This document shows positions 30,311 through 50,475 of a stretch of 64,000 nt of DNA, piece after piece. The stretch lies in the IMG/VR virus record IMGVR_UViG_3300023179_000012. One strand, 5' to 3'. Numbering within the stretch: position 1 is the stretch's first letter; the number at the start of each line of letters is the position of its first letter. The notes below the pieces were generated by a model, which did not search any database, was not told where the DNA came from, and saw only the letters and a program-made list of their open reading frames with translations. Made by a program: the position numbers and the translations under genes. The stretch is from a virus.

Positions 30311-30316
30311 ATTTTG

Positions 30317-30332: not shown

Positions 30333-30369
30333 GAGCATTTCACAGTATTCTAATACGGAGACCAATAAC

Positions 30370-31269: not shown

Positions 31270-31310
31270 TTCTTGGTTAGTAGTTAGTTACAAACTAAAA
31301 GGACAAGTTT

Positions 31311-32267
31311 GTGCCAGGACCTAATAAAAGAGTATATTTTCCGTGTCTGGGCATTGCGAAGTGTCCAGACACGTCTATTTATAACGAGGTTATTTCAGCG
31401 GAAGTTGGTGTTAGTCTAAACATTAATAATATTATCACTCCAGGATCGGTTACACCCGCTGGACAATACTCTGATATTCCAGAGTCTACATTTTCATATA
31501 CATCATACTTACAAACATTTACGCCTATAGCCGACGAAGACGGCGTTAATAATTTTGTTGGTTGGGATATGCTCGTTGGTTTAGATAGCGATACTAATCA
31601 AACTTTTGGTGGACTATTTAGTGGCACATCAACACTACTATCTGGCTCGGTTAATGGCTCTTCACCATATGATGGTATCAGATGCTCATTGTGTACATTA
31701 TCGTCAATTTCATACGATTTACCGGTTGATGGAAATTTTACTGTTAGTAGAACGTATCAAGGTTTTTCTAAAAAAGTTTTACCAAACGCTGGCGGCTACA
31801 CATTTACAGAAAGTACCGGTAAAGTTAAACGTAGACAATGTTTTCAAGGAACTCTTCCATCCAGAATATCTAATAATGCTATACAAAATATAAAAATTGA
31901 ATTCTCTATCAATAGAACACCAGTACCAGAATTTGCTACCAGAAAACCATATGCTGTTTATGTTAATTTTCCAATCGAAAGTACTATAACATTTGATATG
32001 ATAGTTCAACGATTAGATAAATATAATCTTGATGCTCTTCAAACCGCTTGTAAAAATATTGGAGTAACATCAGAAGATATTACTATATCTGTTGATGGGG
32101 CCGGATCTATAACATTAAAAAAAGCTTATGTCAATAGTATTCAATATAATGGTGGATCTGCAAACTCCAACGATAATCAAACAGTATCAGTAACATATAA
32201 AAGTTATGAACCAATAACAAACATAAAACCTGTTATCATAACACCGGACGAGGATCCTTGTTTATAG
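31311..32267 (+). CDS. Second tail-tube-like paralogue (GTG start)
   Basis: Collinear with 30370: SSISYDLPVDGNFT vs SSLTYTFPVDGNFT, VKRRQCF vs VLRRQNF, VNFPIE vs VNFPLE. Confidence 0.65.
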   Translation: MPGPNKRVYFPCLGIAKCPDTSIYNEVISAEVGVSLNINNIITPGSVTPAGQYSDIPESTFSYTSYLQTFTPIADEDGVNNFVGWDMLVGLDSDTNQTFGGLFSGTSTLLSGSVNGSSPYDGIRCSLCTLSSISYDLPVDGNFTVSRTYQGFSKKVLPNAGGYTFTESTGKVKRRQCFQGTLPSRISNNAIQNIKIEFSINRTPVPEFATRKPYAVYVNFPIESTITFDMIVQRLDKYNLDALQTACKNIGVTSEDITISVDGAGSITLKKAYVNSIQYNGGSANSNDNQTVSVTYKSYEPITNIKPVIITPDEDPCL

Positions 32268-32279
32268 TTTTAGGAATTT

Positions 32280-33335
32280 ATGACAACTATCGAAAAGATT
32301 TTATATAGAATATTATTAGGATATTATTATATTTATATTAATGATGAACAATATAAAGTAATTTATCCCACCCTAAGTATTAAATACGAAGCAGAATTAC
32401 TATATGAAAAAATATTAGAGGATAATAAATTTGATAAGATGTATCTAAATGATAATGAAATAAAAAACTATTTACATATGAATAATATATGGTTAAAAAA
32501 TGATGATGAGAAACTAAAGGACTGCGAGAAATTTCTTGAAGACTCTAAAGTTAATTTATATCTAAATTATAGTAATGAAAAAATGACCACCACTAATAAA
32601 AAAAATATTTCCAAAGCGCAAAAAGATCTTGAGACTCTTTTATCCAAAAAACATAGTTTTGATTATCTAACAATACATGAACACGCAACATCTGTTAAAA
32701 ATGAATTTATTCTTATGAATAGTATCTATGATCAACACAATAATTTAGTATTTGATTATCATAAAGATCATATTTTAGCCTATAATGATTTTCAGTCTTT
32801 TGTTAGAGAAATTTTAGAGACATCTATTAAACAACATGAATTAAGACGAGTGGCTAAGTCAGACTTGTGGAAATCCTACGCTGTTGCATCAAAAATAGAA
32901 AAAGATATCATTGATATGAATGATGACTATCGTCATCTGATTGGCTTACATAAGATGTATGATAATGTAAGACAGCATCCTGAGTGTCCATCAAATGAAA
33001 TTATAGAAGATGATGATGCTTTGGATGGATGGTTTATATACCAAAATAGAAAAGCTGAGAAAGAAAAGAAGAAGAACAGTATTATGAATAAGATTGGTAA
33101 TAAGTCCAAAGATGCTGGAGAAGTATTCTTAATAACAGACGATATCAAAGAACGAGATGCTATATACGCATTAAACGATGCTACTGCTCGTCAAAATATT
33201 AAAGAAATTATTAACACTGGTAAAAAACTAGAGTCCACAAAAGAAAATATGAAATGGCAGGATATTCCATTTGTACAAAGAGATTTGAGAAACCAGGCTC
33301 AGGAAAAGTTTAAGAATCATCAGAAGGGAAAGTAA
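32280..33335 (+). CDS. Hypothetical protein, 351 aa (tail assembly region)
   Basis: Helical charged ORF between the tube and tape measure genes. Confidence 0.6.
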   Translation: MTTIEKILYRILLGYYYIYINDEQYKVIYPTLSIKYEAELLYEKILEDNKFDKMYLNDNEIKNYLHMNNIWLKNDDEKLKDCEKFLEDSKVNLYLNYSNEKMTTTNKKNISKAQKDLETLLSKKHSFDYLTIHEHATSVKNEFILMNSIYDQHNNLVFDYHKDHILAYNDFQSFVREILETSIKQHELRRVAKSDLWKSYAVASKIEKDIIDMNDDYRHLIGLHKMYDNVRQHPECPSNEIIEDDDALDGWFIYQNRKAEKEKKKNSIMNKIGNKSKDAGEVFLITDDIKERDAIYALNDATARQNIKEIINTGKKLESTKENMKWQDIPFVQRDLRNQAQEKFKNHQKGK

Positions 33336-34650: not shown

Positions 34651-37600
34651 ATGGCCGCATTTAATTTAACAGCAGAAATTAATCTAAGAGGTCCTTCCAA
34701 TATTAGGAAGGTTGTTGGAGATATTAAAAGAGAGCTTGGTAATATAGAATCCCAGGTTACTCTTAAAATATCTAATAAAGCCGCCCAAAATATTAATAAT
34801 ATCACTAATAGTGTCAACATATTAAATGATGCACTTTTAAGAGCACAGGCAACCGCCGGAAACCTATCATCAACACTATCCTCTCTTGGTGTTTCCACGG
34901 GTAATGTTTCTAGCAGTCTTAAGTCAATTTCAAGTGGCACAGCAGAGTTAACATCTTCTGCACAAACTGTAGCCAAAGCAACATCAGAAGCGTCGTCCGA
35001 AATGGCAGAGTTCGGTAGACAATCTGCTCTTGCTGTGAGAAGATTTGCCGCTTTTAGTGTTGGTACAGCATCAATATACGGTTTAACAAGAGCTATTTCA
35101 TCTTCGTTTAGTGAATTTATTAAATTTGATAGACAACTAGTTAGACTAAAACAAACCACAGGAGATTTCAGTTCCGATATTGATAGTATCTCTAATGAAA
35201 TTTCGAGACTGTCCACAACTTTTGGTGTTAGTTCTGGTGATTTGGCGGAGGTTTCGGTAACACTAGCTCAGGCCGGTTTAAGTGCTGTACAAACCAAAGA
35301 CGCTCTAGAAGCATTAGCAAAAACCGCCTTGTCTCCATCATTTGAAAATATTCAAGATACTGCGGAAGGTGCTATTGCCGCCATGAGGCAGTTTAATATT
35401 TCAACCAAAGAACTTGATAGCGCTTTGAGTTCTATTAATGCTGTTGCTGCTGCGTTTGCTGTTGAATCAAGCGATATTATAGCTGCTATTCAGCGTACTG
35501 GTGGTGTGTTTGCAAGTTCTAGCAGAGGAGTTAGTGAAGGTAAAGACGCTCTAAATGAATTTATTGCTGTATTCACCAGTGTTCGTGCTACAACTCGTGA
35601 AAGCGCTGAAACTATCGCTACTGGTTTAAGAACTATTTTTACTAGAATTCAAAGACCAAAGACTATTGAAGCATTAAGAGAATATGGTATTGAATTAACA
35701 GACTTAAAGGGTAAATTCGTTGGAGGCTTTGAGGCCATAAAAAGAATTAGCGAAGGCTTGACCGGATTAGATACTAGAGATATAAGTTTTGCTAAAATTG
35801 TTGAAGAATTGGGTGGATTTAGACAAATCGGTAAAGTTATTCCATTAATTCAAGAGTTCGGCACCGCACAACAAGCATACAATGTTGCTGTACAAGGACA
35901 AGGCAGTTTAACCAGAAATGCTATTCAAGCTCAAGACGCTCTAGCTGTACAATTCTCTAAAACCAAACAGGAGTTTGATGCTCTTATTAGATCTGTCGGA
36001 GACACAGGAACATTCAAAAATATTATTTCTGGTGGACTAGGACTGACAAGAGTACTAATCAATCTTGTTGGAGCTTTTAAACCACTGTTACCCTATCTTG
36101 CTATTATTGGTGGACTAAAAGCTGGAGCAGCATTAACAGAATACGCAGGAGGATTTTTAGGTGGCCTGAAGAAAAACCAAAAAGGCTCTGCTCCTCCAGA
36201 AGATTTATTAGGCCCTCTTGGTGGTGGTGGTAATCGACCAAAGAGACCATCTTCTGGCGACACAATGGATACTAGTGCCTTAGAAGCATTTTTATCTGAT
36301 AATAGCACCGCTCTTAATAATGTAACAAATTCTTTAGCAGCTTTATCAAAAACAATATCAGACGGAGCATTAGCATCGTCAAGTGTTGATCTAACTAGTA
36401 TATCATCATTGATTGGTGGACTTGGCGATCAAATAGGAGAATTAAATAGTAGTTTACTAACTAGTGGCGATATTTTTAAATCATCAGCAGAACAAATCTC
36501 CACCTCGGTAATAAGCATGTCATCTATAATGACTGGGGTTGGAGATATATATAAAGCATCTACAGATAATGTTTCAACTAATTTATTAACATTATCAGGG
36601 GCTATTCAAGAACTATCAAATAAACTTAGTGGTACAACACCTCCAAATGAAAACTCTGGACCATCAGAAGGTCCAACTATGAAATCTGGTGGTGGAGTCA
36701 TTAGAAAATTTGCTAGAGGAGGTTATGTTCCTGGTTCTGGCAATAGAGATACTGTACCAGCAATGTTACAGCCTGGAGAATTTGTTATTCGTAAAAAAGC
36801 TGTTGATACTATAGGTGCTAATCAATTACATAGTATGAATAAATATGGAAGAGGAGGAATCGCTTCTAAATTTCGTTCTGGTGGTAAGATACAAAAATTT
36901 AAACAAGGCGGTGGAGTTGCAGATGTACAATTCACAGAGGGCTACGACGGAGATTCTTTCCATGTTAATTTCACACCAGCAGCTTCTCCATATGAAACAT
37001 TAACAAGACTAGAGGGTGCTGACGCATATGAAATTAAAGGAGCTGCCACCAGAAAAGGATATGATGCTAATGAGATCGCTAAGGGCAAGCAAGCTGCTGA
37101 AATAACTACAAGATGGGCGCAAACAGCAGGAAAAGACAAATTATTAAAATCATTCAAAGATTCTAATAAATATGATAATCTTGGCCGTCCAATGTTTAAG
37201 TCGGATGAATTAGTCGGTCTTCTAAAAGGTGCTGGTGTCCTTGATCCAGAAAGTAAATGGAATCAAAAATCATTAGGTGGATTAATACAAAAATTTGCTC
37301 GCGGCGGCAAAGCTAAAAAAACCGAGGATTCGCCTCCTGTTCGTCCGCCTCTAAATCTGCCTGATATTATACCAGGAACAACGCCAGAACTCGAAATAGC
37401 AATAGCAGATGCAAAAAAGAGAAACAGCACATACGCTTTAACAGATAGAAGAGATAATATAAAAAGCAGGCTTACTCAAGCATATAGAGGAATAATTTTT
37501 CCAGGACTAAAACCATCTACAGAAAAAATTACAGATGACACAATAATATCTCTTTATTCCGAAGAGACATCGGGCTATATTAAAAGATCGATTAAATCAT

Positions 37601-40600
37601 TAGAAGCCGATCTTAAGTATATAGATATGGCAACTAAAAAACCGGAGCAATTAAAAGCTACAAAAACACGTAGCATTAGTGATATGCTTGATGCTATTAG
37701 AGCATACCAAGCTTTCGGTTTAGACTCTACCTTAAACGAAGCTGCTGCTAATAATACTTTAGACGCTAAATTGGGCAGCATCTTAACTGAAGAAGATAAA
37801 AAAAGATACGCAGCAATAGCTGATAAACCCTTATCGTTTTTTGCAGAATCTTTGGATGATAGTATGCAGTTTTCGATGCCAAAAACATTATATGCGGGCT
37901 TGGGACAAAGCAAACAAAAATTATTGTTGGACTCCGCTGGAATAAAAATTAACGAAGAAAAAGATATACAAAAGCTTGTTGGCAAAACGGTTAGTATGCC
38001 ATCATTCTTATCTTCTTCAGAATTAGAGAGTGTTGGTTTGAGTTTTTCTAGAACCGGCTTAATGAAAATAGCAACAAATCCTAAACGCAAAGGTTTAAAT
38101 GTTAATTTAGCTAAAGAACAAACAGTTAACAGAGATGACATGGCGACCAGAAGTTCTAAAAATAGGCTTATTGATAATGAATCAGCATTTTTTAGCGAAG
38201 ATTTTGCTGATGATATGGATATTGAAAGCGAATATATTTTTCCTAGAAATAGTAAATTTAAGGTTTTAAAAACAGAAAGTAGCATATGGAATAGAAATAA
38301 ACCACCAGAAGATCCTTGGGCTATAAACTGGGATGTGCAAGAACTAGCTCAAGGAGGTAAAATTCAAAGAAAAGTTGGTTATATTGATTACGATGTAATA
38401 GCTAATGAAGCTAATGCTGCGGTAGTAGATGCTGGAATGAAACAGGCTGGGGTGAGTGGTCCTAGATTATATGCAGACTATCTTACAGATCTTGCTGTTA
38501 AAGCTAGAAAAGAAGAAAGCTTAGATAAATTAAGAGCAATTTATGGTGTTGCTGGTAGTGGTAAAACTACTCTTGCTCGTGGAGCCGGAACCGATATTGG
38601 CACCATGAGACAAACAGAAAGATTTCCAATATTAAGTCCAGAAGATATACAAAAGGCAACAGAAGTATTAATATTAACCAGTACTGTTTCTAAAGATAAA
38701 TTAGAAGGATTTTTGAGAGAGGTTGATAGGGCTTATACTCTCAGTTCAACAACACCAGAAGAACAACAAAGAATACTATCTCAAAGATCAAGCAGAGATA
38801 TTACTGGAATAGGACTAGAAGGCCGTCAACCCGGCGCCACAACTGGAGTTGGTACAGACACAGCTATCGGAGAAGCATTATTAGGCGATGCTCTTGGTAA
38901 AAAATCAGTTGTATTAGGAAGAACAGGGACTGGTAGACTAAGAGCTAAAAATAAAAATGAATTAGTTGATGTTATCAAGAAAAAGATTGGCTTCACATGG
39001 GGTGGATTTGCTCCAACAACAAGAGGACACGAATCTATTGTTGATGCTGCTGCTGCTTATGGTATACCACCAGAAGATTTTATAGCTTTAGTTGGATCCA
39101 ATGAGGGGATTAGAAATACTGATCCATCAAGTTATAGAACAGCAATTTTAGATCAAGACGCTAGAGTATTATTAGCTAAAGCTGGTTTTGGCGCAAAAGG
39201 AGCCACAGTATTACCAAAGCCAAGAGACTTTGAAGTTCCTCAAGGATTTGATATTAGTGAAGGAGGCAGAAGAAGAGTACTTTTACCCGGTGCTGGTAGC
39301 GCAACTTTCGTTGCCGATAAAGGAGAATCTGATACAGCTAAGTATAAAGCTGCTGGATATAATGTGGTTAATATTCCACGTACCGAAGGTATTAGCGGCA
39401 CAATGGTTAGAGACTTGATAGCATCCGGAGATATGGGTAGATTACAACAAGTATTATCTCCTGGTGTTTATGAGATGATATCCAATAATATTGGTAGGCT
39501 CCAAAATAGGGCTGGTATATTACCAGAATTAATACAACAAGCAAAAGCAAATGAGGCCGCATCACTACAATCGGTTGAAGAACAAATTAAAGCTGTTGGT
39601 ATTAGTCGTATAGATAAAAAGAGAGCAGAAAATGATCCAGAGTACGCTGCTCAAGTAGAGGTTCTTCAACAACTTAGAAAACACAGAGATAGAATTAAAA
39701 ATGCTGCACAATTTGAACCATATAGACTGTTAGATAGATTAGCTCAGGCTCAACCTGACAAATACGCTTTAGATTTTGCTACAAGAGCAGCTACAGCGGC
39801 TCCAAAACTAGGAACAATGGCTGGCGTTGAAGCTATGCCACAACAGAGCGCTCAAGAAAAATTAATTGAAGAAGTTACTGCTCTTGGACGAGTAGCCGGT
39901 ATTAAAAAACTTTTAGATTTACCAAAAGCAGATAGATCTCTGGATAGTTTATTGAGAATAGATAGAATTAAAACCTATCAACCAGACTCCCCAGAATTAC
40001 AACAGGCTATGGATGTTGTTCAAAAAGCTCTAAATGCGCAAGGAACCTCTAGCGCAGCAGAACAACAAAGAATAGCAGGATTAACTAAAGTTGGTGTTGT
40101 TGGATTATTAGATGATAGCGGCCAACTTGGATATAGTAAGAATTTTGAATGGGATTTAGATAGCGGCAATAAAGTTTATGCTTATGCCAGAGGAGTAAGC
40201 CAGCGTTATGAACCAGCTGTTCGTCAGATGCAAGCAGAATCAGCAGCATCCGCAGTTAAATTTGCTGAAAATATGCAATACGCTGATATCTTTACTGGTG
40301 AGCCATTAGCCTTTGATTTTGATGAAACATTGGTAAAAGGTGCCGATATACTAGGACCAAATGGTAAACCAGATATTCCAAGATATGGTGATCTTGATGC
40401 TGTTGCAGAATCTTTAAAGGGAGCATCGTTAACCTCATTAGGTGAAAAACTTAGAGATTTATTAAGAGTCAATCCAGACTTCAAAAAGAATACTAGAATA
40501 CTAACAGCCAGACCACAACAGTCCGCTGGATTATTAGCTCAATCATTACAAGGTTTTGGACTACCATATCAAAGTAGTGATATAACAGGAGTTAGTAATT

Positions 40601-43600
40601 TTACTGGAGGTAATACTTTAGATATTGTTGATCCAAATACTCAAAGATTAAACTCTACTAGAATAGCAACTGCTAAAGCACAAAATCTTGGAGCACTTGA
40701 AAAATTAATTGATGACAATCTTGATAATGTTATGGCCGCTAAAAAAGCTGGTAAAAAAGCATACTTATATACTGAACCAGCACCAAAACCAGAATTGGAT
40801 CTACTTATGGGTCAAGGAGCTATAGAAGGGGCTATTGTTGAAAAAGCATTAGCCTTATTAGGGGCTAATTTACCACCCATAGAACAATTAGAACAAAATA
40901 GAGCAATAGACTTTCCTGGTGGATTAGGACGAGCCGCACAGTTTTTTGATATTGACCCAAATATTCCAACAGAGGTTAAACGAACTCTTAATGGTAGTAG
41001 TTTTGAAAAAGCCAGAGAAGAATTTGCTAGAATGTATTCTGAACAAATGGTTGGATTATCTGGCGGTGGTATAATACAAAAATTTAGAAATGGTGGACAG
41101 GCTGAATATATCGAAAAATATAAACAAATTCTTAAGAGTATTCTTCCACCAGAATTTTTAAGTGATCAAGGTTTCTTAAAAACTCCATCAGGCAGATCAG
41201 AACCCATAGAAATTATTCCTCCTACTGATGTTCGTCAGTCTTCTATGGAAAAGATGATGTCGGTACTATTAGGCAAACCACAAAAAGAAAAGGGTGGAGC
41301 TAGCTATAGTGGAGGCTTAGTATACAAAATATTAAGAGATAATTTATATCAAGCTAAAGATAAGATATCTCCAGATGAATATAATACTTTAAGATCTTTT
41401 GTGGATCAAAATCTTTTATTTCATGGCGAAGACGATATTATCGATCTTGAAGAACAGAAAAGACCAGGAAGTTTTGCTCATGAAACTTTTCACGATATTC
41501 AAGGTTATTTATTAGACTATTATCCTGAAATTTATAAAAGATTACAGGGTGGAGTAGAAGGTCAAAGAAAAAATATAGAAGCATGGTATAGTGATCCAAA
41601 AACAGCTCAATGGAGAACTGCTAGAGACTATCAACTTACACATTTGTTTCCATCATCTTACGAAGAGAGTCCTTATAAATCAACCGCTGGAGCTATTGTT
41701 GGAGCCGGATATAAAAAATTCAAACGTTTTTCACCGTCGATTGAAGACATTGCAAAACAAACACAAATGGATTTGGGTCGAGCAGAAACTATTCCGGTAC
41801 TTATGGCAGCAGCAGCAGAAGGAGAAAGCTCTTCTCAACAAATCCTAAGTCAAATTTTTGGTAGTGCTGGTTTAAATCGTGATTTTTATAAGTCTTTACC
41901 AAAATTTGCTGATGGTGGAGTAGCAACACTAGATCAGATGAGCGATAAGGGTCTAGCTAAAAAATCTAAAGAATTTGGTAAAATTGGACTAAGAAATACT
42001 GGCTCTGAGATTACAGCAACATATTTCAAAAATGCAAATAGAGAAGGAATGGTAACAGCAAAAAGATTTGCTGATAATTTATTTACTGTTGGCTTGTCAA
42101 AAGCTACAGGTGGTTATGGCCCAAGATTGTATGACGCTGTTATGGAAGCCGCAACAGCATCTGGAGGAATGTTAACTTCTGATAGAAATCAGGTTAGTGA
42201 TGCCGCGAAGGCTGTTTGGGCTTATTATTTTCAGAATCGTGGAGATGTTAAGAAAACACCATTGGATCCATCTCAATGGACTAAAAATCAAAATTATGTT
42301 GATCCCAAATTATATGGTAAAAAAGAAACATGGCCACCATTTAGTGACCCAGCATGGATCTTACAGACTGGATATAGCAAAGCGCCAGATTTAATTAATA
42401 GTCCAGACATTATAGATATGAATGATCCTAAATATGCTGATTATATTAGACAGCAACAACTAGGATACATGACATCAGCGGTTCTTGCTGGCAATATGAG
42501 ACATAGTGGTGGAAGTATTAGAAAGTTTGCTAAAGGTGGAACATCAGAAGATACTGTTCCAGCATTATTAACCCCCGGCGAATTCGTTATTAATAAAAAA
42601 GCTGCTCAGCGTATAGGTTATGGACAGCTTAATAGATTAAACAAAGCTGATAAATTACAAGGATTTAATAAGGGTGGATCTGTTGGGATTACTAGATTTG
42701 CTGCTGGCGGCAAAGCTCCCGGAGATCAAGCTGCTGCTGTTGATGTGTTTGTGCAAAAGATTGTTGAATTAACATCGGCTATAGAAAGTCAAACCTATAA
42801 GGTTCGCAGATCAGAGGGCATGACTGCTCAAGAAGCTAAGAAAGAAGCTGATACAGAAGCCCAGTTTGCTGCTATTGATTTTGGCAGAATGCAAACATAT
42901 ATTGATCCGGCTAATGCAAAAATTATAGCAGAAGCTGTTGGTAGAGTTTTAGATTCTATAGTTGGTAAAATGAGTCCATTCAGCGAGGGCGGACCAAGAA
43001 AACCGGGCTACTTCGATAGACCACCTGTAGAAAAAGCCCCTATCCCAGAACCAAAACAAGATTATACAGGTCAGAGATTAACAACCGGTAATTTTGATCC
43101 TAATGATATTGTAACACCAGCTAGAATAGTAGAAAAATTTACTCTAGAAGCTGAAGCGGCAGGAATGACTTTGGATAAACTTACTGATCGCATTAAAAAA
43201 TTCACAGCTGATACTGCTATAGCTTATAAACAAACTGTTACAAAACAACAAAAATCAGCTGGTGCCGCTATCAGTACTGCTACAGATGTTAGAAGTGATG
43301 AATCTATTAAGCGTGCTCAAAGTGAAGTTACCAATCTATTTCAAGCATTTGATAGTAATATTCCAGAAGAACGCATGGGTCAAATCATGAATCAATTGGA
43401 GTCAGGTATCAAGAGTGGCATGAATTTTGATCAAATTAAGAGCAGCATACCCGAACTCGATAGTATTATTAGAGAGGTTATAGATAACCATAAAGCATTA
43501 GCATATGCAACCAGCGAAACTGTTAAAAAATTCGGTACATTAACTGAACAAATGAAAGTTAGTGAAAACTTAATTAAGGGAGTTGAATCTGGAAGATGGT

Positions 43601-46600
43601 CTGGAAAATCAATGACTGATATCGAGAGGCTTCAAACTTCATCAGAAAAAAATATAGACTGGGAAAAATTTGGAGGTAACAGATTTCCTGGGTTTGATAA
43701 ATTAAATCAGCAATCTCCAGAATTAGCTGCTAATATTGGTAGATGGGTAGAAAAATTAGGCGGATTTGTTGGTGTTATGGGTGCTCAAATGTTGGTATTT
43801 GCCAAGGGTTTACCAAGTATCTATACTGGTTTAGACAATTTATTGAAAACATCTCTTTCAACAAATGCTAGTATGAAAGGTTTGGCAAATGGGATTGCAG
43901 AAGCTGGAGGAGCGGCCAAAGGTTTTGCTCTATTAGCACAGCAAGCTGGGTTAGACGCTAAAGGAACCGCAATTGCTGGTGGTACTGGACTTGTTCTAGG
44001 TGGTATTCAAGGGGCTTTTGAAGGATATTTTAAACAAGAAGCTCAGAATTTTGCGGAAGCATTAGCTGCTACAACAGATAGATTAAAAACTCTTTATGAC
44101 CAATTAAAGCTTCCGGGTATTGATGCTCAAACAACAGAAGATATTAGATCTCAAATTGATGACGAAATTGGAAGATTATCTAAAGAAATAGGAAACATTA
44201 ATGAAATAACAACCCCAGATTGGAGCACCCTCTTCTACAATGTTGCCGCTTCAATCAAAGACGGTATAATTGCTGGACTAACATTTAAGGCTGGCATAGC
44301 ATCATTTAAAAGCTCTGGAGGCGTGGTAGGATACTATGACGATGGAGGAAGTATATTCAAGCCAAAGGGTACGGACACTGTGCCAGCAATGTTAACTCCT
44401 GGTGAATTTGTTGTTAATAAGAAATCCACAGCTAAAAATCAAGGATTATTAGAAAGTATTAATTCTGGTAATTATAAAGCTAGAGGAGGTGTTGTTTATG
44501 CTGCTGGCGGTGGAGTAACAGAAGAAGAACAAAAATATAGCAAGGGATTCACTCGCTTTATGGGAGCCTTAAAGGCTTTATCTGGCGCTTTAGAAGCAGC
44601 AAGTGGTACAGGTTTACTCGTCGCATCAGGAGCTGGAACAGTTTTAAGTGGTGGTGGTGCCGCCCCAGTATCAGTTCCTGGTATGGTTGCTGGTGGAGCA
44701 GTGGCCGCTCACGGTGGAGATAGATTTATTGCTGGTATGAGACAATTATTTACTGGAGAACAGAAAAGATCCATAACATCGCAAGGATTAGATTATGTCA
44801 CAGGAGACAAAGGTACTTCTGATGTTGCTGATGAAGTTTTGGGTGTTGTCGGCGGAGTTGGTAGTCAAATAGCAACTAAGGCTCTAGAAAAAGCTGCTAC
44901 AACGGCGGTCACAACAGCCGCCGAACAAGCTGCAAAATCAGCAGTTACTAATTTGCCCGGATCTGGAACACAGGTTGTTGGAGCCGGTACAACCGCTGCT
45001 GCTGCAACAGACGCCGCTGCTGCTGCAACAGACGCCGCTACTACTGCCGCAAACACAGCTACTGTCGGATCTATTGTTAAAAGTATCATAACTAAGATAG
45101 GTATCGGAGCTGCGATTACTGGCGGCTTTAGCATGATAGCATCTTTTATGGGTAGAAGTCCGTACTCAGAAAAAGAACAAAAAGCAGTAACCAAGATCGC
45201 GGATCTACAAGAACAATACTTCAAAAAAGCTGCTGAAACACTAGTGCCACTACAAGGATTTGAAAAAGCATTCAATATTGTTAGAGGAGCAAAAGGTCTC
45301 ACTGGAGACGCCAGAAATCAATATTTTGCAGGAGTTAGTCCGGTAACAGAGGCTGCTACTAGGACAGCATTAACTAATCAAGGTTTTGATATTAAAAATA
45401 ATCAATCTATTCAGGACTTTGTTGGTTCTTTGGATCAGGCCAGTCAAGCTAATGCTACTGCTGTTGTTGAACAAGCTAAAATAGATCAAATTAAAAATAC
45501 TCTAGTTGCCGATGAAATTCAAAGAGCAACAGCTAATGGCGATAGCAGAGAAGATGCTGTTGCTAGAGCCTCTAAATTGATAGCACCATTACAAGAATTT
45601 GGTACTGTTGCTGAGGCCCAAGCTGCTGCATTGTCAGATACCGATCTAGCCGCATTGCTTAAGAGAGCTATGGATGTTCAGGGTATACAGGCTCAATCAA
45701 TATATATGCAATATGTGATGGGTCAACTATCAAATAGGATTCAACAGTCTACTGATTTAACAATAGTTGCCATGAAACGATTCGAAGAAGGAATCACAAA
45801 ATTATCTGATAAAGCAAGTAATCTATCACAAGTATTGATACCAAATCTTGTTGGTAATAAAATGGGTGGTCCAACACCGACACTTAAAATTGACAGAAGC
45901 GCATTAATAACTCTCAATAATCTTGCTACTGCTAGTAATGAACAAATTGCTAGCGCTGTTGAACAGGTGGGCTCACAAATGGGTATGAGTAGTGTTGGAA
46001 CACAAAATTTTACTAGACAATTTCAGGCCCAAAGAATTGTAGAACAAAGACTTCCTCAAATTCTTGCAGAAATTAGTGATTCATTATCTGGCGCCGGAGA
46101 CAATGAAGAACCCAGAAAAACAGCAGAAGACCGTCTAAGAACTGAATTAAAGCCGCTTATAAGTAATGTTATGACTCCTGAGGAAACCAATGCAACAATT
46201 GATCAACTAGTTAAAGCATTACAAGCAGATAATAGAGAACAGGGTGGTATTAGCAGATATACTAAAGATATACCAGCCCTACAAGCTGTTATAAAAGGAG
46301 CTTTTGAATCAGCCGGAGCTTTTAAGAGAGCTGGTGTTAAAATAGCAGATTTTGGAGATACTTTCTATCAAATCGGTAATCAATATGCTGAGGCCCTTAC
46401 TCATTTAAATGAATTATCTACAAATTATGCAAAAACATTAGCAGAATCTACTATTTCATTAAAACAAGCTCTTGGAGAAAGCGTATCTGTTGACGAAGGT
46501 TCAAGACCATTTGAAAATATGATTCTTGGTAGAACTTTTGGTACAGCGATACCAGAAAGTGATAATCCATTACTTCGTCAAAATAGAAGAGGAACCACAG

Positions 46601-49600
46601 ATCCTAGAGTAATTGGATCCAGATTAGATGCTTTAGATCAAGAAAAAATTAGATTACAAAATGAGATCGAAGCGGCAAGAGGTAGTAGAAGAGCTGGTAA
46701 TCTTGGGGTCGGCATTAGTAAAGATGCTGGTGGTGATCTTAAGGCGCTTCAAACAAGATTAGCATTAGTTACTAGCGAAAGCGATAGATTAAACGGCGCA
46801 TTAAAAAGTTTAGCTGATAGCACTCAAAAAGCTTCGCTAATTCTTAATAAAATTCAAGAACTACAAAAAGTCAAAGAAGGTAAAGAAACAAATTTCCTTG
46901 GATTGCTCAAGAGCTTCTCTAATCCTGAAGAAATGATGCGTTCTGCTGAAAAAACTGCATCGCTGGCAGCGTTCAAGTCAGAGGGCGCTGGTGGACAGCC
47001 AGGACCAATAGGCGATCTTGCTACGGCAGTAAGACTGCTTCCACAAGCACTAGAAGCTATGGAAACTGCTACTAGTCAAATGACAGAGAGTGATAAGCAG
47101 GCATTTAGAGGAGATACTATCAAATCAATACTAAGTGTATTTGATAGAATTGCGCCAGATATTGGGGCACAATTAAGAGGATTATTTAGTAATCAAGCTA
47201 GCTCAGGAGCGTTTGGTATTGGACAAGATCCAAGAACAGCAGATTTAATTCAACAATTCTTAGCAGAACAAGGAGTTAGAGGAGCAGCAGCTGCTGAAAT
47301 TGAAAGAAGAATGGCTCAAGGAGCTGCCGATATTCAGAATGGCATGAATGCTGCGTCTCAAGATTTTCAAGCTGGAGTAAGAGAATCTGTACTATTAGAA
47401 GAAAAATTAAGAGCAGAAATTGCGCAAGCGGAGAAAAGAAGTAGAGAAGAAGCTCAAAGAATGGCAACCATACAAAGTTTGGGTGTTGTAAATTCTACTG
47501 GAAATGTTAATGCAACAGGACCTGTTACTATTGGTGTTGTTAATGTGCCAAATATGCCGGGTCCAAGACCACTCAATCCAAGATTCGGAGCACAACCCGC
47601 TGAGACTAATTCTAGAGGTGGAATGGTATATGCTAGCGATGGACAACATATTAACTTCAAACCAAAAGGTACCGATACAGTACCAGCGATGCTTACTCCG
47701 GGAGAGTTTGTGGTAAATGCTAAATCGACTAAACAAAATCTTGGATTATTAAAGACCATCAATAGTGGGTCTAAAGGATATAAATCTGGTGGAATAGTAT
47801 ACTTGGAAGAAGGTGGACAAGCTGAAGATCGCATTATACAAGGAGCTACTAGAAGTGGTCCCATAAGTTTCTATAATAAAGTATTAGGACAAGATCCAAG
47901 CACACAAGTTATGAATGGTAATACTGGGCCATATAATCTTAGTATGCGTCCTAGAGATAAATATGCTATTGGTTGGGGTGAAGATATTATTGATCCTGAT
48001 AGTATTCTTGGACTTAATATGAAATATGAACCCGATTTTGGAAATGATGCAGAAGTTAAAAAGCACTGGAAAGATAAACTCAAAATAGCTCGCTCATTAA
48101 TAAATTCTCGATTAAAATCGGGACAAAGTGTTGAAGGCGAACCATTATTACCAATAAATACTTCTTCATTTGATAAACGCTTAGATGAAGTACCAAGTAT
48201 AGCCAGCTCTATGGATAAGGCTATCGGATATAAATATTTACAATCAATAAATCAATTTAGATTAAGTCCATCAGAAATGATTGATGCAGAAAAAATTAAT
48301 GCTAAAAATAGTAGAGACTGGGCATGGACGGAAGGAAGAGACTGGGTTGATTATCTGGGTATACCAACAAATTCTGAATCACTTGCTGCTTGGACATACG
48401 GATTAACTAGTAAGATTATTCCTGGTATTCTTGGGGTTATTGGGGGTGGTATTGGATTTGCTGCTGGGGCACCACTAGGTCCTGGAGCCATATTAACTGG
48501 TGCTGGTGGTGGTATTGCAGGAGCTAAATTAGGTGAAGAAATAAATCAAGTTTTATATGATAATCTATTACCCAGTTGGTTAAAAACCGATATAGAAAAT
48601 AAACAAAAACAATTTCCAAAAGAATATGAGGGTGGTAAATGGGTAGGCTTTGCTAGCGAATTGGGTGGAGGAGCTGTTTATGGTAGAGTTATAGAACAAA
48701 CTACTAAAAGAGCAATTGCCGCAACACTAATGAAAGGCGGAAATATAGGAACGAGAGCTGCAACTGGAACAATTGTTCCAGAATCTTTTGGAGGCCACTC
48801 ATATCTAGGTATGACAGAAGAAGAGTTCAAACAAGGCGTAGCTAGATTAAAAGCTATGACAGAACAAAGTATAAATGATGGTACGCAGGCATCTACTAAA
48901 GTAAAAGCTATTCATGGTGGAGGCGTGGGATATATAGAAGAACAAGCCCAAAAAGCTAAGACCACAATGGGTGAAGCTGTTGATACTGCTCGTAATGTTA
49001 GATACGTATACGGTCCCGGTGGAGACCCATATAGACCAGGACAAGTAGGAATGGGTGGATTTAATCTTGGAGTGAACAGTGCTTTAGATCAAATGATCTA
49101 CACCAAAGAAAGTTATGATGAAGCTATAAAAGCTTTTATTAGTGGAAAAATGAAGCCAGAAGCCCTAAGATCTGTATTAAATAAATCTGGTTTTATGATA
49201 ACAGATCTAGAAACAGCCATGCTAGACGACTCTCTTGTTAAATTAATGGATAATGTTAGAGTAGAAAAACCAGAACTTTTTGAAAAAATATTAGGAAAGT
49301 TGAAAGATGACGGTTACTCAGACGTTTTTTCAACATTAACTGATGGCACAGAAAGAAAATGGTACGACACTCTTAATATACTGAGAGATAAATTTAAAAG
49401 CTTATCATTAGGAGATGACGCATTAGCAGAAAAGGCTTTCCAAGATTTTGCACAAAGCGTTGGAATCAAAGGAACTAGAGCACAGGCAAGTGTTATTAGA
49501 GGAGGTAAAGTTCCTGGGTGGTTAGGGGAATGGCTACCTCCAGGACAAGCTGAATTAACTGGAGATAGTGTTGCATTATTAACAAATAAAGTTTTAGGAG

Positions 49601-50475
49601 ATGCTAAAGCTGTTAAATTAAATGAAGTAACTAAATTTGAGGCAGAATTCAGAAGATTATTAAGTCTAAAGAATTGGGGTAATGAGGTGCTCTCAGATGC
49701 AGAAAGACGAGCTTTAGAAAAGGGATATAATGAAATTACAGGTGAAGGTGAAAAAGACCCTCATAACTTAGCAAACGGAGGTTTAATATATGCGAGCAAT
49801 GGTCAGTATGTGAACTTTAAGCCAAAAGGCACCGATACTGTTCCTGCTATGCTAACGCCAGGAGAGTTTGTGGTTAATAGAAAAGCTACTCAAAATAATC
49901 TTGGATTATTAAAGAGTATAAATAGTGGCCATTACAATAAGGGCGGCAGAGTATCTTATCTACAGAATGGCGGAATGGCCAATAGCTCTGGCTCTATTAT
50001 GAATGCTTTAAGCGGTGTATCTTTAAGTGTGGATTCTTCGTCTCTGAATAGTGCTTTTAGCACATTCCAAGAGCATGTTCAGAGTATGAAAGCTTCTTTG
50101 GATTCTTTTGGCGCAACTATTGGAGATATGAAAAATGGCCTATTTGACACTAAGAGTCTAAATGATGCTGGTATCAGGCTATCAACAGCAGCAGCATCAA
50201 TTAGAAATGCTAGTGATAATTTTGCTAATAATATTTTACAACTTAATAAAACACTATCAGGTTTAGAGACTAGTATAAATGCTATACCATCAGAAATATC
50301 GCTTAATGTTACAGGAGGAATTCCAGTGAATGTTACTGTAGATGTTAATGGTGGTGAAGGATTAGATAATAGGCTATCATCATTCAAAGACGAGATCTAT
50401 TCCGCAATAGAAAATAGCATAAGCGCAGCAACCCAAGGCAATCTTAAGATTGTTTTAAAGAGAAACATAAGGTAA
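34651..50475 (+). CDS. Giant tape measure protein (5274 aa) with inserted enzyme-like domains
   Basis: N-terminal TMP core (SEFIKFDRQLV...STTFGVSSGDLAE...LAQAG...FRQIG) at the canonical position; five DTVPA(M/L)L(T/Q)PGEFV modules; SNase, ART, P-loop, HIGH-NTase, HAD, HExxH and GNAT-like motifs. Confidence 0.9.
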   Translation: MAAFNLTAEINLRGPSNIRKVVGDIKRELGNIESQVTLKISNKAAQNINNITNSVNILNDALLRAQATAGNLSSTLSSLGVSTGNVSSSLKSISSGTAELTSSAQTVAKATSEASSEMAEFGRQSALAVRRFAAFSVGTASIYGLTRAISSSFSEFIKFDRQLVRLKQTTGDFSSDIDSISNEISRLSTTFGVSSGDLAEVSVTLAQAGLSAVQTKDALEALAKTALSPSFENIQDTAEGAIAAMRQFNISTKELDSALSSINAVAAAFAVESSDIIAAIQRTGGVFASSSRGVSEGKDALNEFIAVFTSVRATTRESAETIATGLRTIFTRIQRPKTIEALREYGIELTDLKGKFVGGFEAIKRISEGLTGLDTRDISFAKIVEELGGFRQIGKVIPLIQEFGTAQQAYNVAVQGQGSLTRNAIQAQDALAVQFSKTKQEFDALIRSVGDTGTFKNIISGGLGLTRVLINLVGAFKPLLPYLAIIGGLKAGAALTEYAGGFLGGLKKNQKGSAPPEDLLGPLGGGGNRPKRPSSGDTMDTSALEAFLSDNSTALNNVTNSLAALSKTISDGALASSSVDLTSISSLIGGLGDQIGELNSSLLTSGDIFKSSAEQISTSVISMSSIMTGVGDIYKASTDNVSTNLLTLSGAIQELSNKLSGTTPPNENSGPSEGPTMKSGGGVIRKFARGGYVPGSGNRDTVPAMLQPGEFVIRKKAVDTIGANQLHSMNKYGRGGIASKFRSGGKIQKFKQGGGVADVQFTEGYDGDSFHVNFTPAASPYETLTRLEGADAYEIKGAATRKGYDANEIAKGKQAAEITTRWAQTAGKDKLLKSFKDSNKYDNLGRPMFKSDELVGLLKGAGVLDPESKWNQKSLGGLIQKFARGGKAKKTEDSPPVRPPLNLPDIIPGTTPELEIAIADAKKRNSTYALTDRRDNIKSRLTQAYRGIIFPGLKPSTEKITDDTIISLYSEETSGYIKRSIKSLEADLKYIDMATKKPEQLKATKTRSISDMLDAIRAYQAFGLDSTLNEAAANNTLDAKLGSILTEEDKKRYAAIADKPLSFFAESLDDSMQFSMPKTLYAGLGQSKQKLLLDSAGIKINEEKDIQKLVGKTVSMPSFLSSSELESVGLSFSRTGLMKIATNPKRKGLNVNLAKEQTVNRDDMATRSSKNRLIDNESAFFSEDFADDMDIESEYIFPRNSKFKVLKTESSIWNRNKPPEDPWAINWDVQELAQGGKIQRKVGYIDYDVIANEANAAVVDAGMKQAGVSGPRLYADYLTDLAVKARKEESLDKLRAIYGVAGSGKTTLARGAGTDIGTMRQTERFPILSPEDIQKATEVLILTSTVSKDKLEGFLREVDRAYTLSSTTPEEQQRILSQRSSRDITGIGLEGRQPGATTGVGTDTAIGEALLGDALGKKSVVLGRTGTGRLRAKNKNELVDVIKKKIGFTWGGFAPTTRGHESIVDAAAAYGIPPEDFIALVGSNEGIRNTDPSSYRTAILDQDARVLLAKAGFGAKGATVLPKPRDFEVPQGFDISEGGRRRVLLPGAGSATFVADKGESDTAKYKAAGYNVVNIPRTEGISGTMVRDLIASGDMGRLQQVLSPGVYEMISNNIGRLQNRAGILPELIQQAKANEAASLQSVEEQIKAVGISRIDKKRAENDPEYAAQVEVLQQLRKHRDRIKNAAQFEPYRLLDRLAQAQPDKYALDFATRAATAAPKLGTMAGVEAMPQQSAQEKLIEEVTALGRVAGIKKLLDLPKADRSLDSLLRIDRIKTYQPDSPELQQAMDVVQKALNAQGTSSAAEQQRIAGLTKVGVVGLLDDSGQLGYSKNFEWDLDSGNKVYAYARGVSQRYEPAVRQMQAESAASAVKFAENMQYADIFTGEPLAFDFDETLVKGADILGPNGKPDIPRYGDLDAVAESLKGASLTSLGEKLRDLLRVNPDFKKNTRILTARPQQSAGLLAQSLQGFGLPYQSSDITGVSNFTGGNTLDIVDPNTQRLNSTRIATAKAQNLGALEKLIDDNLDNVMAAKKAGKKAYLYTEPAPKPELDLLMGQGAIEGAIVEKALALLGANLPPIEQLEQNRAIDFPGGLGRAAQFFDIDPNIPTEVKRTLNGSSFEKAREEFARMYSEQMVGLSGGGIIQKFRNGGQAEYIEKYKQILKSILPPEFLSDQGFLKTPSGRSEPIEIIPPTDVRQSSMEKMMSVLLGKPQKEKGGASYSGGLVYKILRDNLYQAKDKISPDEYNTLRSFVDQNLLFHGEDDIIDLEEQKRPGSFAHETFHDIQGYLLDYYPEIYKRLQGGVEGQRKNIEAWYSDPKTAQWRTARDYQLTHLFPSSYEESPYKSTAGAIVGAGYKKFKRFSPSIEDIAKQTQMDLGRAETIPVLMAAAAEGESSSQQILSQIFGSAGLNRDFYKSLPKFADGGVATLDQMSDKGLAKKSKEFGKIGLRNTGSEITATYFKNANREGMVTAKRFADNLFTVGLSKATGGYGPRLYDAVMEAATASGGMLTSDRNQVSDAAKAVWAYYFQNRGDVKKTPLDPSQWTKNQNYVDPKLYGKKETWPPFSDPAWILQTGYSKAPDLINSPDIIDMNDPKYADYIRQQQLGYMTSAVLAGNMRHSGGSIRKFAKGGTSEDTVPALLTPGEFVINKKAAQRIGYGQLNRLNKADKLQGFNKGGSVGITRFAAGGKAPGDQAAAVDVFVQKIVELTSAIESQTYKVRRSEGMTAQEAKKEADTEAQFAAIDFGRMQTYIDPANAKIIAEAVGRVLDSIVGKMSPFSEGGPRKPGYFDRPPVEKAPIPEPKQDYTGQRLTTGNFDPNDIVTPARIVEKFTLEAEAAGMTLDKLTDRIKKFTADTAIAYKQTVTKQQKSAGAAISTATDVRSDESIKRAQSEVTNLFQAFDSNIPEERMGQIMNQLESGIKSGMNFDQIKSSIPELDSIIREVIDNHKALAYATSETVKKFGTLTEQMKVSENLIKGVESGRWSGKSMTDIERLQTSSEKNIDWEKFGGNRFPGFDKLNQQSPELAANIGRWVEKLGGFVGVMGAQMLVFAKGLPSIYTGLDNLLKTSLSTNASMKGLANGIAEAGGAAKGFALLAQQAGLDAKGTAIAGGTGLVLGGIQGAFEGYFKQEAQNFAEALAATTDRLKTLYDQLKLPGIDAQTTEDIRSQIDDEIGRLSKEIGNINEITTPDWSTLFYNVAASIKDGIIAGLTFKAGIASFKSSGGVVGYYDDGGSIFKPKGTDTVPAMLTPGEFVVNKKSTAKNQGLLESINSGNYKARGGVVYAAGGGVTEEEQKYSKGFTRFMGALKALSGALEAASGTGLLVASGAGTVLSGGGAAPVSVPGMVAGGAVAAHGGDRFIAGMRQLFTGEQKRSITSQGLDYVTGDKGTSDVADEVLGVVGGVGSQIATKALEKAATTAVTTAAEQAAKSAVTNLPGSGTQVVGAGTTAAAATDAAAAATDAATTAANTATVGSIVKSIITKIGIGAAITGGFSMIASFMGRSPYSEKEQKAVTKIADLQEQYFKKAAETLVPLQGFEKAFNIVRGAKGLTGDARNQYFAGVSPVTEAATRTALTNQGFDIKNNQSIQDFVGSLDQASQANATAVVEQAKIDQIKNTLVADEIQRATANGDSREDAVARASKLIAPLQEFGTVAEAQAAALSDTDLAALLKRAMDVQGIQAQSIYMQYVMGQLSNRIQQSTDLTIVAMKRFEEGITKLSDKASNLSQVLIPNLVGNKMGGPTPTLKIDRSALITLNNLATASNEQIASAVEQVGSQMGMSSVGTQNFTRQFQAQRIVEQRLPQILAEISDSLSGAGDNEEPRKTAEDRLRTELKPLISNVMTPEETNATIDQLVKALQADNREQGGISRYTKDIPALQAVIKGAFESAGAFKRAGVKIADFGDTFYQIGNQYAEALTHLNELSTNYAKTLAESTISLKQALGESVSVDEGSRPFENMILGRTFGTAIPESDNPLLRQNRRGTTDPRVIGSRLDALDQEKIRLQNEIEAARGSRRAGNLGVGISKDAGGDLKALQTRLALVTSESDRLNGALKSLADSTQKASLILNKIQELQKVKEGKETNFLGLLKSFSNPEEMMRSAEKTASLAAFKSEGAGGQPGPIGDLATAVRLLPQALEAMETATSQMTESDKQAFRGDTIKSILSVFDRIAPDIGAQLRGLFSNQASSGAFGIGQDPRTADLIQQFLAEQGVRGAAAAEIERRMAQGAADIQNGMNAASQDFQAGVRESVLLEEKLRAEIAQAEKRSREEAQRMATIQSLGVVNSTGNVNATGPVTIGVVNVPNMPGPRPLNPRFGAQPAETNSRGGMVYASDGQHINFKPKGTDTVPAMLTPGEFVVNAKSTKQNLGLLKTINSGSKGYKSGGIVYLEEGGQAEDRIIQGATRSGPISFYNKVLGQDPSTQVMNGNTGPYNLSMRPRDKYAIGWGEDIIDPDSILGLNMKYEPDFGNDAEVKKHWKDKLKIARSLINSRLKSGQSVEGEPLLPINTSSFDKRLDEVPSIASSMDKAIGYKYLQSINQFRLSPSEMIDAEKINAKNSRDWAWTEGRDWVDYLGIPTNSESLAAWTYGLTSKIIPGILGVIGGGIGFAAGAPLGPGAILTGAGGGIAGAKLGEEINQVLYDNLLPSWLKTDIENKQKQFPKEYEGGKWVGFASELGGGAVYGRVIEQTTKRAIAATLMKGGNIGTRAATGTIVPESFGGHSYLGMTEEEFKQGVARLKAMTEQSINDGTQASTKVKAIHGGGVGYIEEQAQKAKTTMGEAVDTARNVRYVYGPGGDPYRPGQVGMGGFNLGVNSALDQMIYTKESYDEAIKAFISGKMKPEALRSVLNKSGFMITDLETAMLDDSLVKLMDNVRVEKPELFEKILGKLKDDGYSDVFSTLTDGTERKWYDTLNILRDKFKSLSLGDDALAEKAFQDFAQSVGIKGTRAQASVIRGGKVPGWLGEWLPPGQAELTGDSVALLTNKVLGDAKAVKLNEVTKFEAEFRRLLSLKNWGNEVLSDAERRALEKGYNEITGEGEKDPHNLANGGLIYASNGQYVNFKPKGTDTVPAMLTPGEFVVNRKATQNNLGLLKSINSGHYNKGGRVSYLQNGGMANSSGSIMNALSGVSLSVDSSSLNSAFSTFQEHVQSMKASLDSFGATIGDMKNGLFDTKSLNDAGIRLSTAAASIRNASDNFANNILQLNKTLSGLETSINAIPSEISLNVTGGIPVNVTVDVNGGEGLDNRLSSFKDEIYSAIENSISAATQGNLKIVLKRNIR

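Follow-up and report, generated by a model that had tools for sequence, protein, structure and literature searches.

Enzymes that phages bring pre-made into the host are usually thought to be head-borne, as for T4 Alt, P1 Dar and the N4 RNA polymerase. T4 Alt, the internal proteins and P1 Dar are ready-made enzymes, an ADP-ribosyltransferase (ART) among them, that are injected with the DNA; they are separate head-packaged proteins with capsid-targeting signals and are not parts of the tail ruler. Tape measure proteins (TMPs) leave the tail at infection. Here we describe a 64,000-nt stretch of viral DNA (IMG/VR record IMGVR_UViG_3300023179_000012; the whole stretch is called the window below) in which the open reading frame (ORF) at 34651–50475 is the phage's TMP, with an enzyme array lying between copies one and two of a TMP module that is conserved. 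Delivery of these enzymes into the host is likely.

One Thermus phage was previously known to have a polymerase fused to its tail ruler. In P23-45, gp96 is a 5,002-aa TMP with an N-terminal virion RNA polymerase that transcribes the pre-early genes, an association that its authors called previously unsuspected (Nat Commun 2024, PMC10770324). Like gp96 and its counterparts in P74-26, G20c and TSP4, the window TMP is a giant cysteine-free TMP with enzymatic parts that would be used at the start of infection; the P23-45 tail is 800 nm long. The two proteins differ in that they have no sequence similarity and that gp96 has no module of the type seen in lambda gpH, its two [FYW]xxGG motifs being at chance level. 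Furthermore, gp96 has one N-terminal enzyme, whereas the window TMP has an exchangeable multi-enzyme array after the core.

The conserved module is itself found in a well-known TMP. In lambda gpH (NC_001416; 853 aa), one copy was read at aa 733–790, showing FHFATGG (aa 733), GEFVFTKEATSRIG and YATGG (aa 778), in agreement with the initial annotation of the window. The proteolytic processing of gpH, mentioned there as well, is a cleavage in a Gly-rich region near aa 690, and residues 818–849 are the only ones resolved (PMC12617516). This puts the module just downstream of the region that is cut, in the part without a resolved structure. T5 pb2 is cut after R1127, separating a peptidase domain from the remainder of the chain (PMC10038345); the local sequence is FVPR, followed across the cut by AEGG and then GEHGTEVV, which looks like a degenerate module start. 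In both proteins there is a single module with a single cut, and no more than one small enzyme motif, compared with five modules, about 13 joints and about 1,860 aa of enzymes between the first and second modules in the window TMP.

Polyvalent proteins (Iyer et al. 2017, PMC5512222) are similar mosaics, with ART, GNAT, zincin peptidase, nuclease and kinase domains in one chain that travels with the DNA. Their examples are packaged in the head or transferred by conjugation, and the word 'tape' occurs 0 times in that paper (PMC5512222). The multi-domain part of the polyvalent definition applies to the window TMP, whose delivery with the DNA is proposed below; a TMP as the vehicle lies outside that paper, the GG-[FY]xxGG joint grammar is not described for polyvalent proteins, and the window cargo falls below the Pfam cut-offs for polyvalent families. 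A further comparison, with MARTX toxins, had been drawn in the initial annotation and holds as an analogy only, in that each lines up interchangeable effector domains along a single very large chain. MARTX toxins rely on a cysteine protease domain for their processing; the window TMP has no such domain, contains no Cys, shows no sequence relation to MARTX, and belongs to a phage tail as opposed to being a type I secretion substrate. The window TMP combines two known kinds, the TMP–enzyme fusion and the polyvalent protein. In a full-text literature search, neither TMPs bearing arrays of several enzymes nor the GG joint were found to have been described.

Identity of the tape measure protein

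The gene is a single uninterrupted ORF on the plus strand, encoding 5,274 aa in the standard code with the frame open for 15.8 kb. The Pfam family PhageMin_Tail (PF10145) was matched above its gathering score (E 6e-24, 85.5 bits against a cut-off of 33.2). This core is present in 118 of 120 homologues, and the relatives carry the source label 'TP901-family tape measure proteins'. The gene is located in a probable tail module, 3' of the terminase, portal and major capsid genes and of a collagen-like fibre gene. The genes near the TMP gene gave only weak tail matches, namely Phage_tube_2 (E 0.044) upstream and an Ig_J domain and SprB repeats downstream, and no sheath gene was recognised among its neighbours in the window.

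Modules and joints

The five modules, with the consensus DTVPA[ML]LxPGEFV, were located by a regular-expression scan at aa 700, 2634, 3242, 4342 and 5062 (nt 36748, 42550, 44374, 47674 and 49834), in exact agreement with the initial annotation. Strict joints of the form GG-x(3-8)-[FYW]xxGG were found ten times (nt 36688, 36853, 36880, 37276, 41062, 42508, 42673, 44317, 47788 and 49942), and 13 joints are obtained with looser counting. The roughly 13 joints first listed are thus ten strict ones plus one shortened and two degenerate copies (near 44470, 47611 and 49768). Half joints were found at 38344 and 41905, and all earlier coordinates agreed within about 12 nt. In a chance control of 500 residue shuffles of the TMP, the full joint occurred 0.19 times compared to 10 observed, [FYW]xxGG 3.4 times (maximum 9) compared to 17, and DTVPA 0.008 times compared to 5.

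The modules can be aligned across about 80 residues, with 18 invariant columns. The cores of the third and fourth modules have 90 % identity as protein and 68 % as DNA, and share a codon at 5 of 17 conserved degenerate residues, which bears out their description as conserved in protein and synonymously diverged. Since the module DNA has diverged while the peptide has been kept, these are old copies under selection on the peptide and not recent duplications. The joints have the consensus GG-k-[VI]-q-[KR]-[FY]-A-x-GG-x-V; 120 proteins contain 611 full copies, mostly of an 11-aa form, and in sequence they look like the flanks of the gpH-type module.

The joints are predicted to be disordered. In the structural model of aa 1723–2615, internal values of the predicted local distance difference test (pLDDT) fell below 50 solely at aa 2135–2146 and 2421–2438, where one joint (2138) and one half joint (2419) are located. 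In the model the folded domains thus stop at these linkers, as initially proposed. A PDB sequence-profile search with the module returned no solved structure (best E 0.12). Searching 50,697 phage genomes with the module by tblastn gave matches in annotated tape measure genes only, from Nodularia, Erythrobacter, Brevundimonas, Burkholderia and Pseudanabaena phages. The module is internal in Nodularia phage vB_NpeS-2AV2, at aa 1008 of a 3,404-aa TMP (L007 4983-15197), and lies about 320 aa before the TMP end in Brevundimonas phage Kikimora. For the Nodularia phage a 795-nm tail has been reported, corresponding to about 0.23 nm per TMP residue, which is above the alpha-helix value.

Family distribution and cargo exchange

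A word-seeded search yielded at least 431 significant giant TMP relatives of 3,000–7,800 aa from 1,175 scored candidates, on contigs of up to 241 kb. One relative is encoded on a complete genome of 238,135 bp with terminal repeats. The family is large and comes from uncultured phages, some of which are jumbo phages. In this abundant clade, which includes the complete 238-kb genome, the TMP has been turned into an exchangeable carrier of multiple enzymes.

The general layout of the family is a core, a module, variable cargo, a second module, two to five segments and an end of about 190 aa. The segments that follow the cargo are about 1,000–1,600 aa each, and each closes with a module. BLAST coverage of the window TMP by 119 relatives changed stepwise at the joints, with 12–29 relatives covering the ART block, about 96 the unit from kinase to HAD phosphatase, about 30 the HExxH block and about 55 the GNAT-like block. 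Of 1,468 homology breakpoints, 56 % fell within 25 aa of [FYWL]xxGG; with randomly placed motifs the figure was 22 % and did not exceed 41 % in 1000 trials. Some of the excess is to be expected, as breakpoints also arise from the conserved modules. Cargo blocks ended within 30 aa of a joint in 80–100 % of cases at most block ends, compared to 12 % for random positions. The exceptions were the two ends at which one half of the kinase-to-HAD unit meets the other (27 and 43 %), the end downstream of the SNase-like block (41 %) and the end downstream of the ART block (29 %).

The order of cargo also varied. The HExxH and GNAT-like blocks occurred in either order, ART was found before or after the kinase unit, and the halves of the kinase-to-HAD unit were swapped in some members. 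Copy number varied as well, with two ARTs within one chain. An ART downstream of the kinase unit, or doubled, was seen in relatives L017 (16793-17743), P0006 and P0030. Comparison of these sequences shows that the content, order and copy number of the cargo change between relatives at the joints, bearing out the cargo swapping between orthologous TMPs that the initial annotation had anticipated. Members formed a graded size series, starting with proteins of 1,935 aa that consist of core, module, a 90-aa element, module and ruler, and ending with the giants. This series from small members suggests that cargo accreted at one site.

Predicted enzymes of the cargo

Domain alignments were built from 70 related loci and two stretches were folded, aa 756–1722 (mean pLDDT 67.5) and aa 1723–2615 (mean pLDDT 85.5). 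The whole protein and ten blocks were also scanned with Pfam at E up to 1, which gave PhageMin_Tail, a weak P-loop, a weak HIGH-type nucleotidyltransferase and Aminopep, and nothing else. Sequence profiles built from the ART, SNase-like, kinase-to-HAD, GNAT-like, HExxH and 90-aa element alignments had no significant match in the PDB; a weak match of the ART S-T-S region to Lmo0066 (E 0.088) was later borne out by fold search. Overall, three cargo folds were confirmed and four calls are motif-level or moderate. The ART, nucleotidyltransferase and HAD calls of the initial annotation were recovered by fold, the second as a HIGH-type enzyme, and GNAT at moderate strength (Z 7.9). Its SNase, kinase and HExxH peptidase calls stay at the level of conserved motifs, the first two being poorly modelled.

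The ART fold was matched by VIA to 8za7_B (Z 13.9, root-mean-square deviation (rmsd) 2.7, 164 aligned), C3bot2 (Z 13.2) and VIP2 (Z 12.7), and by Foldseek to CDTa and C3 (E ~1e-6, probability 1.00). Its first motif is LY[S/T/A]G and not YRG, with S in 30, T in 5 and A in 2 of 37 family copies. The first Ser of S-x-S and both Glu of E-x-E were present in 37/37 copies, and the third-position Ser in 36/37. Because Arg is never present in the first motif, the domain was filed as an ART-fold variant and not as a canonical R-S-E member. The model and the alignment indicate a conserved variant of the C3/VIP2/iota type as opposed to a decayed copy.

The P-loop and adenylyltransferase unit was present in 97/120 homologues. 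Its Walker A motif, GVAGSGKTT at aa 1299–1307, is invariant in homologues, and the adenylyltransferase motifs GGFAPTTRGH (TRGH) and ISGTMVRD are invariant in seven sequences. The adenylyltransferase part matched the archaeal NMNAT 1f9a in VIA (Z 12.6, rmsd 2.6, 154/164 aligned), followed by NaMNAT 3h05 (Z 12.4), PPAT 4nah (Z 12.4) and NadR 8x7f (Z 10.1). Against Pfam it matched CTP_transf_like at E 0.27 and HIGH_NTase1_ass at 18.4 bits versus 26.7, both below cut-off. The language-model neighbours of the unit were viral clusters of CTP_transf_like with Zeta_toxin/AAA_33 and NadR (0.85), which are taken as a lead only. A word-based search for stand-alone relatives of the unit returned only fragments of giant TMPs.

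The HAD phosphatase domain was most similar in VIA to the T4 Pnkp phosphatase, with 5uj0_B at Z 10.1 (rmsd 3.4, 128/142 aligned), 1ltq at 10.0 and 4xrp at 9.9; general HAD enzymes scored about 1–2 Z units lower for aa 1882–2042. With Foldseek, HAD matches had probability 1.00 and phage Pnk phosphatases (polynucleotide kinase/phosphatases) were matched in BFVD. For the full model of aa 1723–2615, no Foldseek match in the PDB reached E 0.001 or better (best 1.6e-3), and the high-probability matches were nearly all HAD. On the predicted structure, therefore, aa 1882–2042 are assigned to a HAD phosphatase closest to the T4 Pnkp phosphatase domain.

The SNase-like block has R31, D36, E39, D87 and R91 invariant in five homologues. 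The spacing of its R-x4-D-x2-E and D-x3-R motifs is that of the SNase catalytic residues. Pfam SNase (PF00565) did not match the block of the window, and matched the homologous block of a relative with 17 bits and E 4.4e-4 per genome, below the 21-bit cut-off.

The 90-aa element (EL in Table 1) is commoner than any enzyme cargo, with exactly one copy in 120/121 family members. An exhaustive search found it in 89 representative proteins, nearly all of 1,500–7,900 aa, and in the smallest family members it is the sole element separating the first module from the second. Across 25 loci, D41 and K64 do not vary, and E13, E18 and E62 are at least 90 % conserved; E62 conservation is below 70 % in the 120-protein alignment. 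Set against the alpha-beta-beta-beta-alpha core of PD-(D/E)xK nucleases, the model shows one clear strand only, and no match was found in per-member Pfam scans or by PDB profile. The initial annotation had called a nuclease here, of which the E..D..ExK pattern within these 90 aa remains, without a fold or family match.

In the HExxH block, H128, E129, H132 and E230 are invariant in nine homologues. In the model, three short strands precede a predicted helix (552–568) that contains HExxH, and a further helix downstream contains the Glu; this order of helices and strands is the zincin layout described for the peptidases of polyvalent proteins. No match was found in per-member Pfam scans or by PDB profile, and matches to the HAD domain took up the lists from the fold searches. 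The language-model neighbours, again a lead only, were LPD23 and LPD1 of polyvalent proteins (0.90). The GNAT-like block gave a single VIA match, YjdJ 5i0c_A (Z 7.9, rmsd 2.9, 83/89 aligned). A shape search of the ESM Atlas returned stand-alone viral hypothetical proteins only, of about 200 aa (TM 0.65), and there was no match in per-member Pfam scans or to PDB sequences.

Cysteine content

No Cys occurs in the 5,274 aa of the window TMP, compared to 1.07 % in 17 neighbouring proteins (P ~4e-25). Of the relatives, 100/121 are Cys-free and the rest have 1–4 Cys. Cys is likewise absent from the TMPs of lambda, T5, P23-45, Nodularia phage 2AV2 and Brevundimonas phage Kikimora. Cysteine avoidance looks like a general TMP property that reaches the inserted enzymes. 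As the cargo is Cys-free like the ruler, the enzymes obey the same constraint as ejected TMPs, which suggests that the cargo shares the fate of the ruler, namely non-native storage and passage through tail and envelope.

Proposed delivery and possible processing

The reading we favour, with a probability of roughly 0.62, is that the enzymes are a cargo of the TMP that is carried by the tail, expelled and refolded in the host. The Cys-free chain would be stored in the tail in a poorly folded, metastable form and expelled ahead of the DNA, as other TMPs are. The enzyme domains would then refold in the host and act before phage gene expression. Candidate activities would be ADP-ribosylation, adenylylation of NAD- or CoA-type cofactors or healing of nucleic acid ends, and dephosphorylation. 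Entry of the cargo into the host, taken separately, is probable. The joints are proposed to serve mainly as flexible, recombination-tolerant seams. Since lambda and T5 TMPs are cut close to this module, proteolysis may also take place at the modules or next to them, at somewhat less than even odds, and cleavage at every cargo joint is unlikely.

Several observations weigh against this reading. Folded domains of 20–35 kDa, in three or six copies, are too big to lie side by side in the lumen of the tail tube, and storage would therefore have to be unfolded or elsewhere. The family is known from sequence alone, and no cultured relative was found in 50,697 phage genomes (megablast with the whole gene, tblastn with the kinase/adenylyltransferase block). 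In the Pfam scans, none of the cargo blocks was matched above a model's cut-off. In the model of aa 756–1722, pLDDT fell below 50–60 for both the P-loop part and the SNase-like block, so that the kinase part is modelled poorly, and the fold of the SNase-like block, at below 50, is not modelled confidently. The canonical NAD-binding Arg is absent from 37/37 ART copies. The NMNAT, NaMNAT and PPAT matches tie within 1 Z unit, such that the substrate of the adenylyltransferase is not told apart. Finally, the T5 cut site reads F-x4-E-GG, which is similar to the joint consensus and is not [FY]xxGG.

A rather less probable explanation is that the cargo is never released, the intact TMP forming a trans-envelope conduit with the enzymes working while attached at the DNA entry site and the joints acting as spacers. 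There is precedent in the P23-45 model, in which the polymerase acts while fused to a pore-forming TMP, and hydropathy places a hydrophobic Gly-rich stretch, typical of membrane-inserting TMP regions, in four segments of the window TMP. The predicted disorder of the joints would also suit spacers, but a plain spacer needs no invariant aromatic residue and two GG pairs across hundreds of proteins. Moreover, soluble enzymes that modify cofactors or proteins would gain little from being tethered.

Somewhat more doubtful still is a cleavable polyprotein in which every joint is a protease site and the chain is cut to free the enzymes, at tail maturation or after ejection. The joints are disordered by prediction and their peptide is highly conserved across the 611 copies while synonymously diverged, and the TMPs of lambda and T5 are cut at or just before the module, in T5 freeing an enzyme domain. 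The chain also contains a zincin-like domain with HExxH and a downstream Glu, and polyvalent proteins have been proposed to process themselves through such peptidases (PMC5512222). However, the residues beside the joint GG do not form a uniform protease-type site across the family, the exact cut position and the protease of gpH are not known (PMC12617516), and the T5 site lies outside the joint consensus. The sole support for joint cleavage within the family is the analogy with the lambda and T5 cuts near the module.

The HExxH domain was considered as a general processing enzyme and rejected. Joint density per 1000 aa was 0.86 in members with the domain and 0.96 in those without, and is hence independent of it, and 47 of the 89 members without the domain have no HExxH motif anywhere. 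Processing is therefore not generally carried out by the HExxH domain, and if the joints are cut, a trans-acting protease would be needed in much of the family. Of the reading put forward in the initial annotation, the modular enzyme array bounded by joints, with cargo exchanged there, is retained for the TMP, and cleavage at the joints and the takeover or anti-defence roles of the enzymes stay proposals.

It is improbable that the enzymes are not delivered at all, acting instead in assembly or in the virion (for example on phage DNA ends or the tail), or merely adding ruler length or persisting as tolerated selfish cassettes. The cassettes do behave as mobile inserts, and the 3,404-aa TMP of Nodularia phage 2AV2, with one internal module and a 795-nm tail, indicates that very long rulers are used as rulers. 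Against this, the catalytic motifs are invariant across diverged copies, which argues for selection for enzyme function; Cys avoidance includes the cargo; and TMPs are known to exit the tail at infection. A mis-assembled or mis-called ORF joining several genes can be dismissed, as no supporting point was found, the standard code reads through all 15.8 kb without a stop, and independent assemblies (JGI, ENA, NCBI and Logan) contain a fragment of 4,652 aa with 100 % identity as well as hundreds of collinear giants.

Under the favoured reading of expelled and refolded cargo, the kinase/adenylyltransferase unit, the Pnkp-like phosphatase and the variant ART would be candidates for immediate-early counter-defence chemistry. 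The joint grammar together with strict Cys avoidance could provide a rule for finding delivered effectors in metagenomes, and the TMP could represent a natural scaffold in which a tail ruler accommodates inserted folded enzymes. For lambda gpH, whose cleavage region is undefined, the module with its joints likewise offers a concrete candidate. In its broadest form, the proposal would be that the gpH-type module with its GG-[FY]xxGG flanks is a universal processing-and-insertion joint of TMPs and the cleavage determinant of gpH and T5 pb2, multiplied to load interchangeable enzymes, including a kinase/NMNAT-type unit rebuilding NAD-type cofactors and the variant ART, that are released in the host before gene expression as a counter-defence and takeover kit. 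We consider this quite unlikely as a whole.

Feature coordinates and ruler segments

The features of the TMP gene are listed in Table 1. Four ruler-type segments follow the cargo, three of which have one hydrophobic Gly-rich stretch each; all of them end in a module.

Table 1. Features of the TMP gene, in nucleotide positions of the window
Feature	Position	Strand	Description	Evidence
B0	34651..36675	+	N-terminal TMP core, aa 1-675	PF10145 at aa 182-376; hydrophobic Gly-rich segment aa 458-487 (hydropathy)
M1	36676..36915	+	First lambda-gpH-type module	GGVIRKFARGG, DTVPAMLQPGEFV, then tandem joints GGIASKFRSGG, GGKIQKFKQGG
B1	36916..37275	+	SNase-like cargo, aa 756-875	Motifs YDGDS, R-x4-D-x2-E, D-x3-R
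Joint	37276..37308	+	GGLIQKFARGG	Regular-expression scan; peak of homology breakpoints
B2	37309..38349	+	Helical N-terminal part and ART fold (aa 997-1233)	Fold search, motifs
B3a	38368..39816	+	P-loop NTPase/kinase-like part and HIGH-superfamily adenylyltransferase (aa 1443-1625)	Motifs, fold search
B3b front	39817..40788	+	Alpha/beta part (aa 1723-1872) and HAD phosphatase (aa 1882-2042)	FDFDET, ILTAR, LIDDN
EL	40789..41061	+	90-aa element (aa 2047-2137)	GQGNIEGA, IDFP.GLG, IPTEVKRT
Joint	41062..41097	+	GGGIIQKFRNGG	Scan; pLDDT <50 in model
B4	41098..41910	+	Zincin-like HExxH domain	HETFH aa 2277-2281 and downstream Glu; ends in half joint KFADGG
B5	41923..42495	+	GNAT-like domain, aa 2444-2574	Invariant GYG..LYD motif (26-sequence alignment)
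M2	42496..42741	+	Module	Scan and module alignment
B6	42742..44292	+	Ruler-type segment	Hydrophobic Gly-rich stretch aa 3036-3057
M3	44293..44541	+	Module	Scan and module alignment
B7	44542..47589	+	Long ruler-type segment, Ala/Gly/Ser/Thr-rich	Hydrophobic stretch aa 3471-3501
M4	47590..47832	+	Module	Scan and module alignment
B8	47833..49749	+	Trp-rich segment	Hydrophobic stretch aa 4585-4611; in 6/120 family members
M5	49750..49992	+	Module	Scan and module alignment
B9	49993..50475	+	C-terminal tail, ~160 aa	Family members end ~180-200 aa past last module

The Pfam match of the long ruler-type segment B7 to Aminopep (aa 3760–3892) was rejected, since it scored 21.5 bits, below the 25-bit cut-off, and the region has no HExxH. 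With 12 Trp and a high aromatic content, segment B8 differs from the other ruler segments, and the distal part of the protein may thus include in B8 one more cargo domain that has gone unrecognised. The tail would be expected to measure about 0.5–0.8 µm if the cargo is not counted as ruler and about 0.8–1.2 µm if it is.

Neighbouring genes

Upstream of the TMP gene, at 29345–33335 of the window, are four consecutive ORFs of similar size (299–351 aa), one with a weak tail-tube match, which may encode paralogous tube or decoration proteins. The virion module also includes an 850-aa fusion at 25178–27730, with glucosyltransferase-like and methyltransferase-like parts (PHROGs 2835 and 2675). The collagen-like fibre protein, at 15620–19777, is 1,385 aa long and matched a PHROG tail fibre with E 4.5e-142. 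Downstream, a tail protein at 56345–58747 has SprB repeats above the Pfam cut-off and an Ig domain of the lambda-J type. A Bacteroidota host, at a first guess a freshwater one, is hinted at by the SprB repeats in this protein together with one relative labelled Sphingobacteriia.

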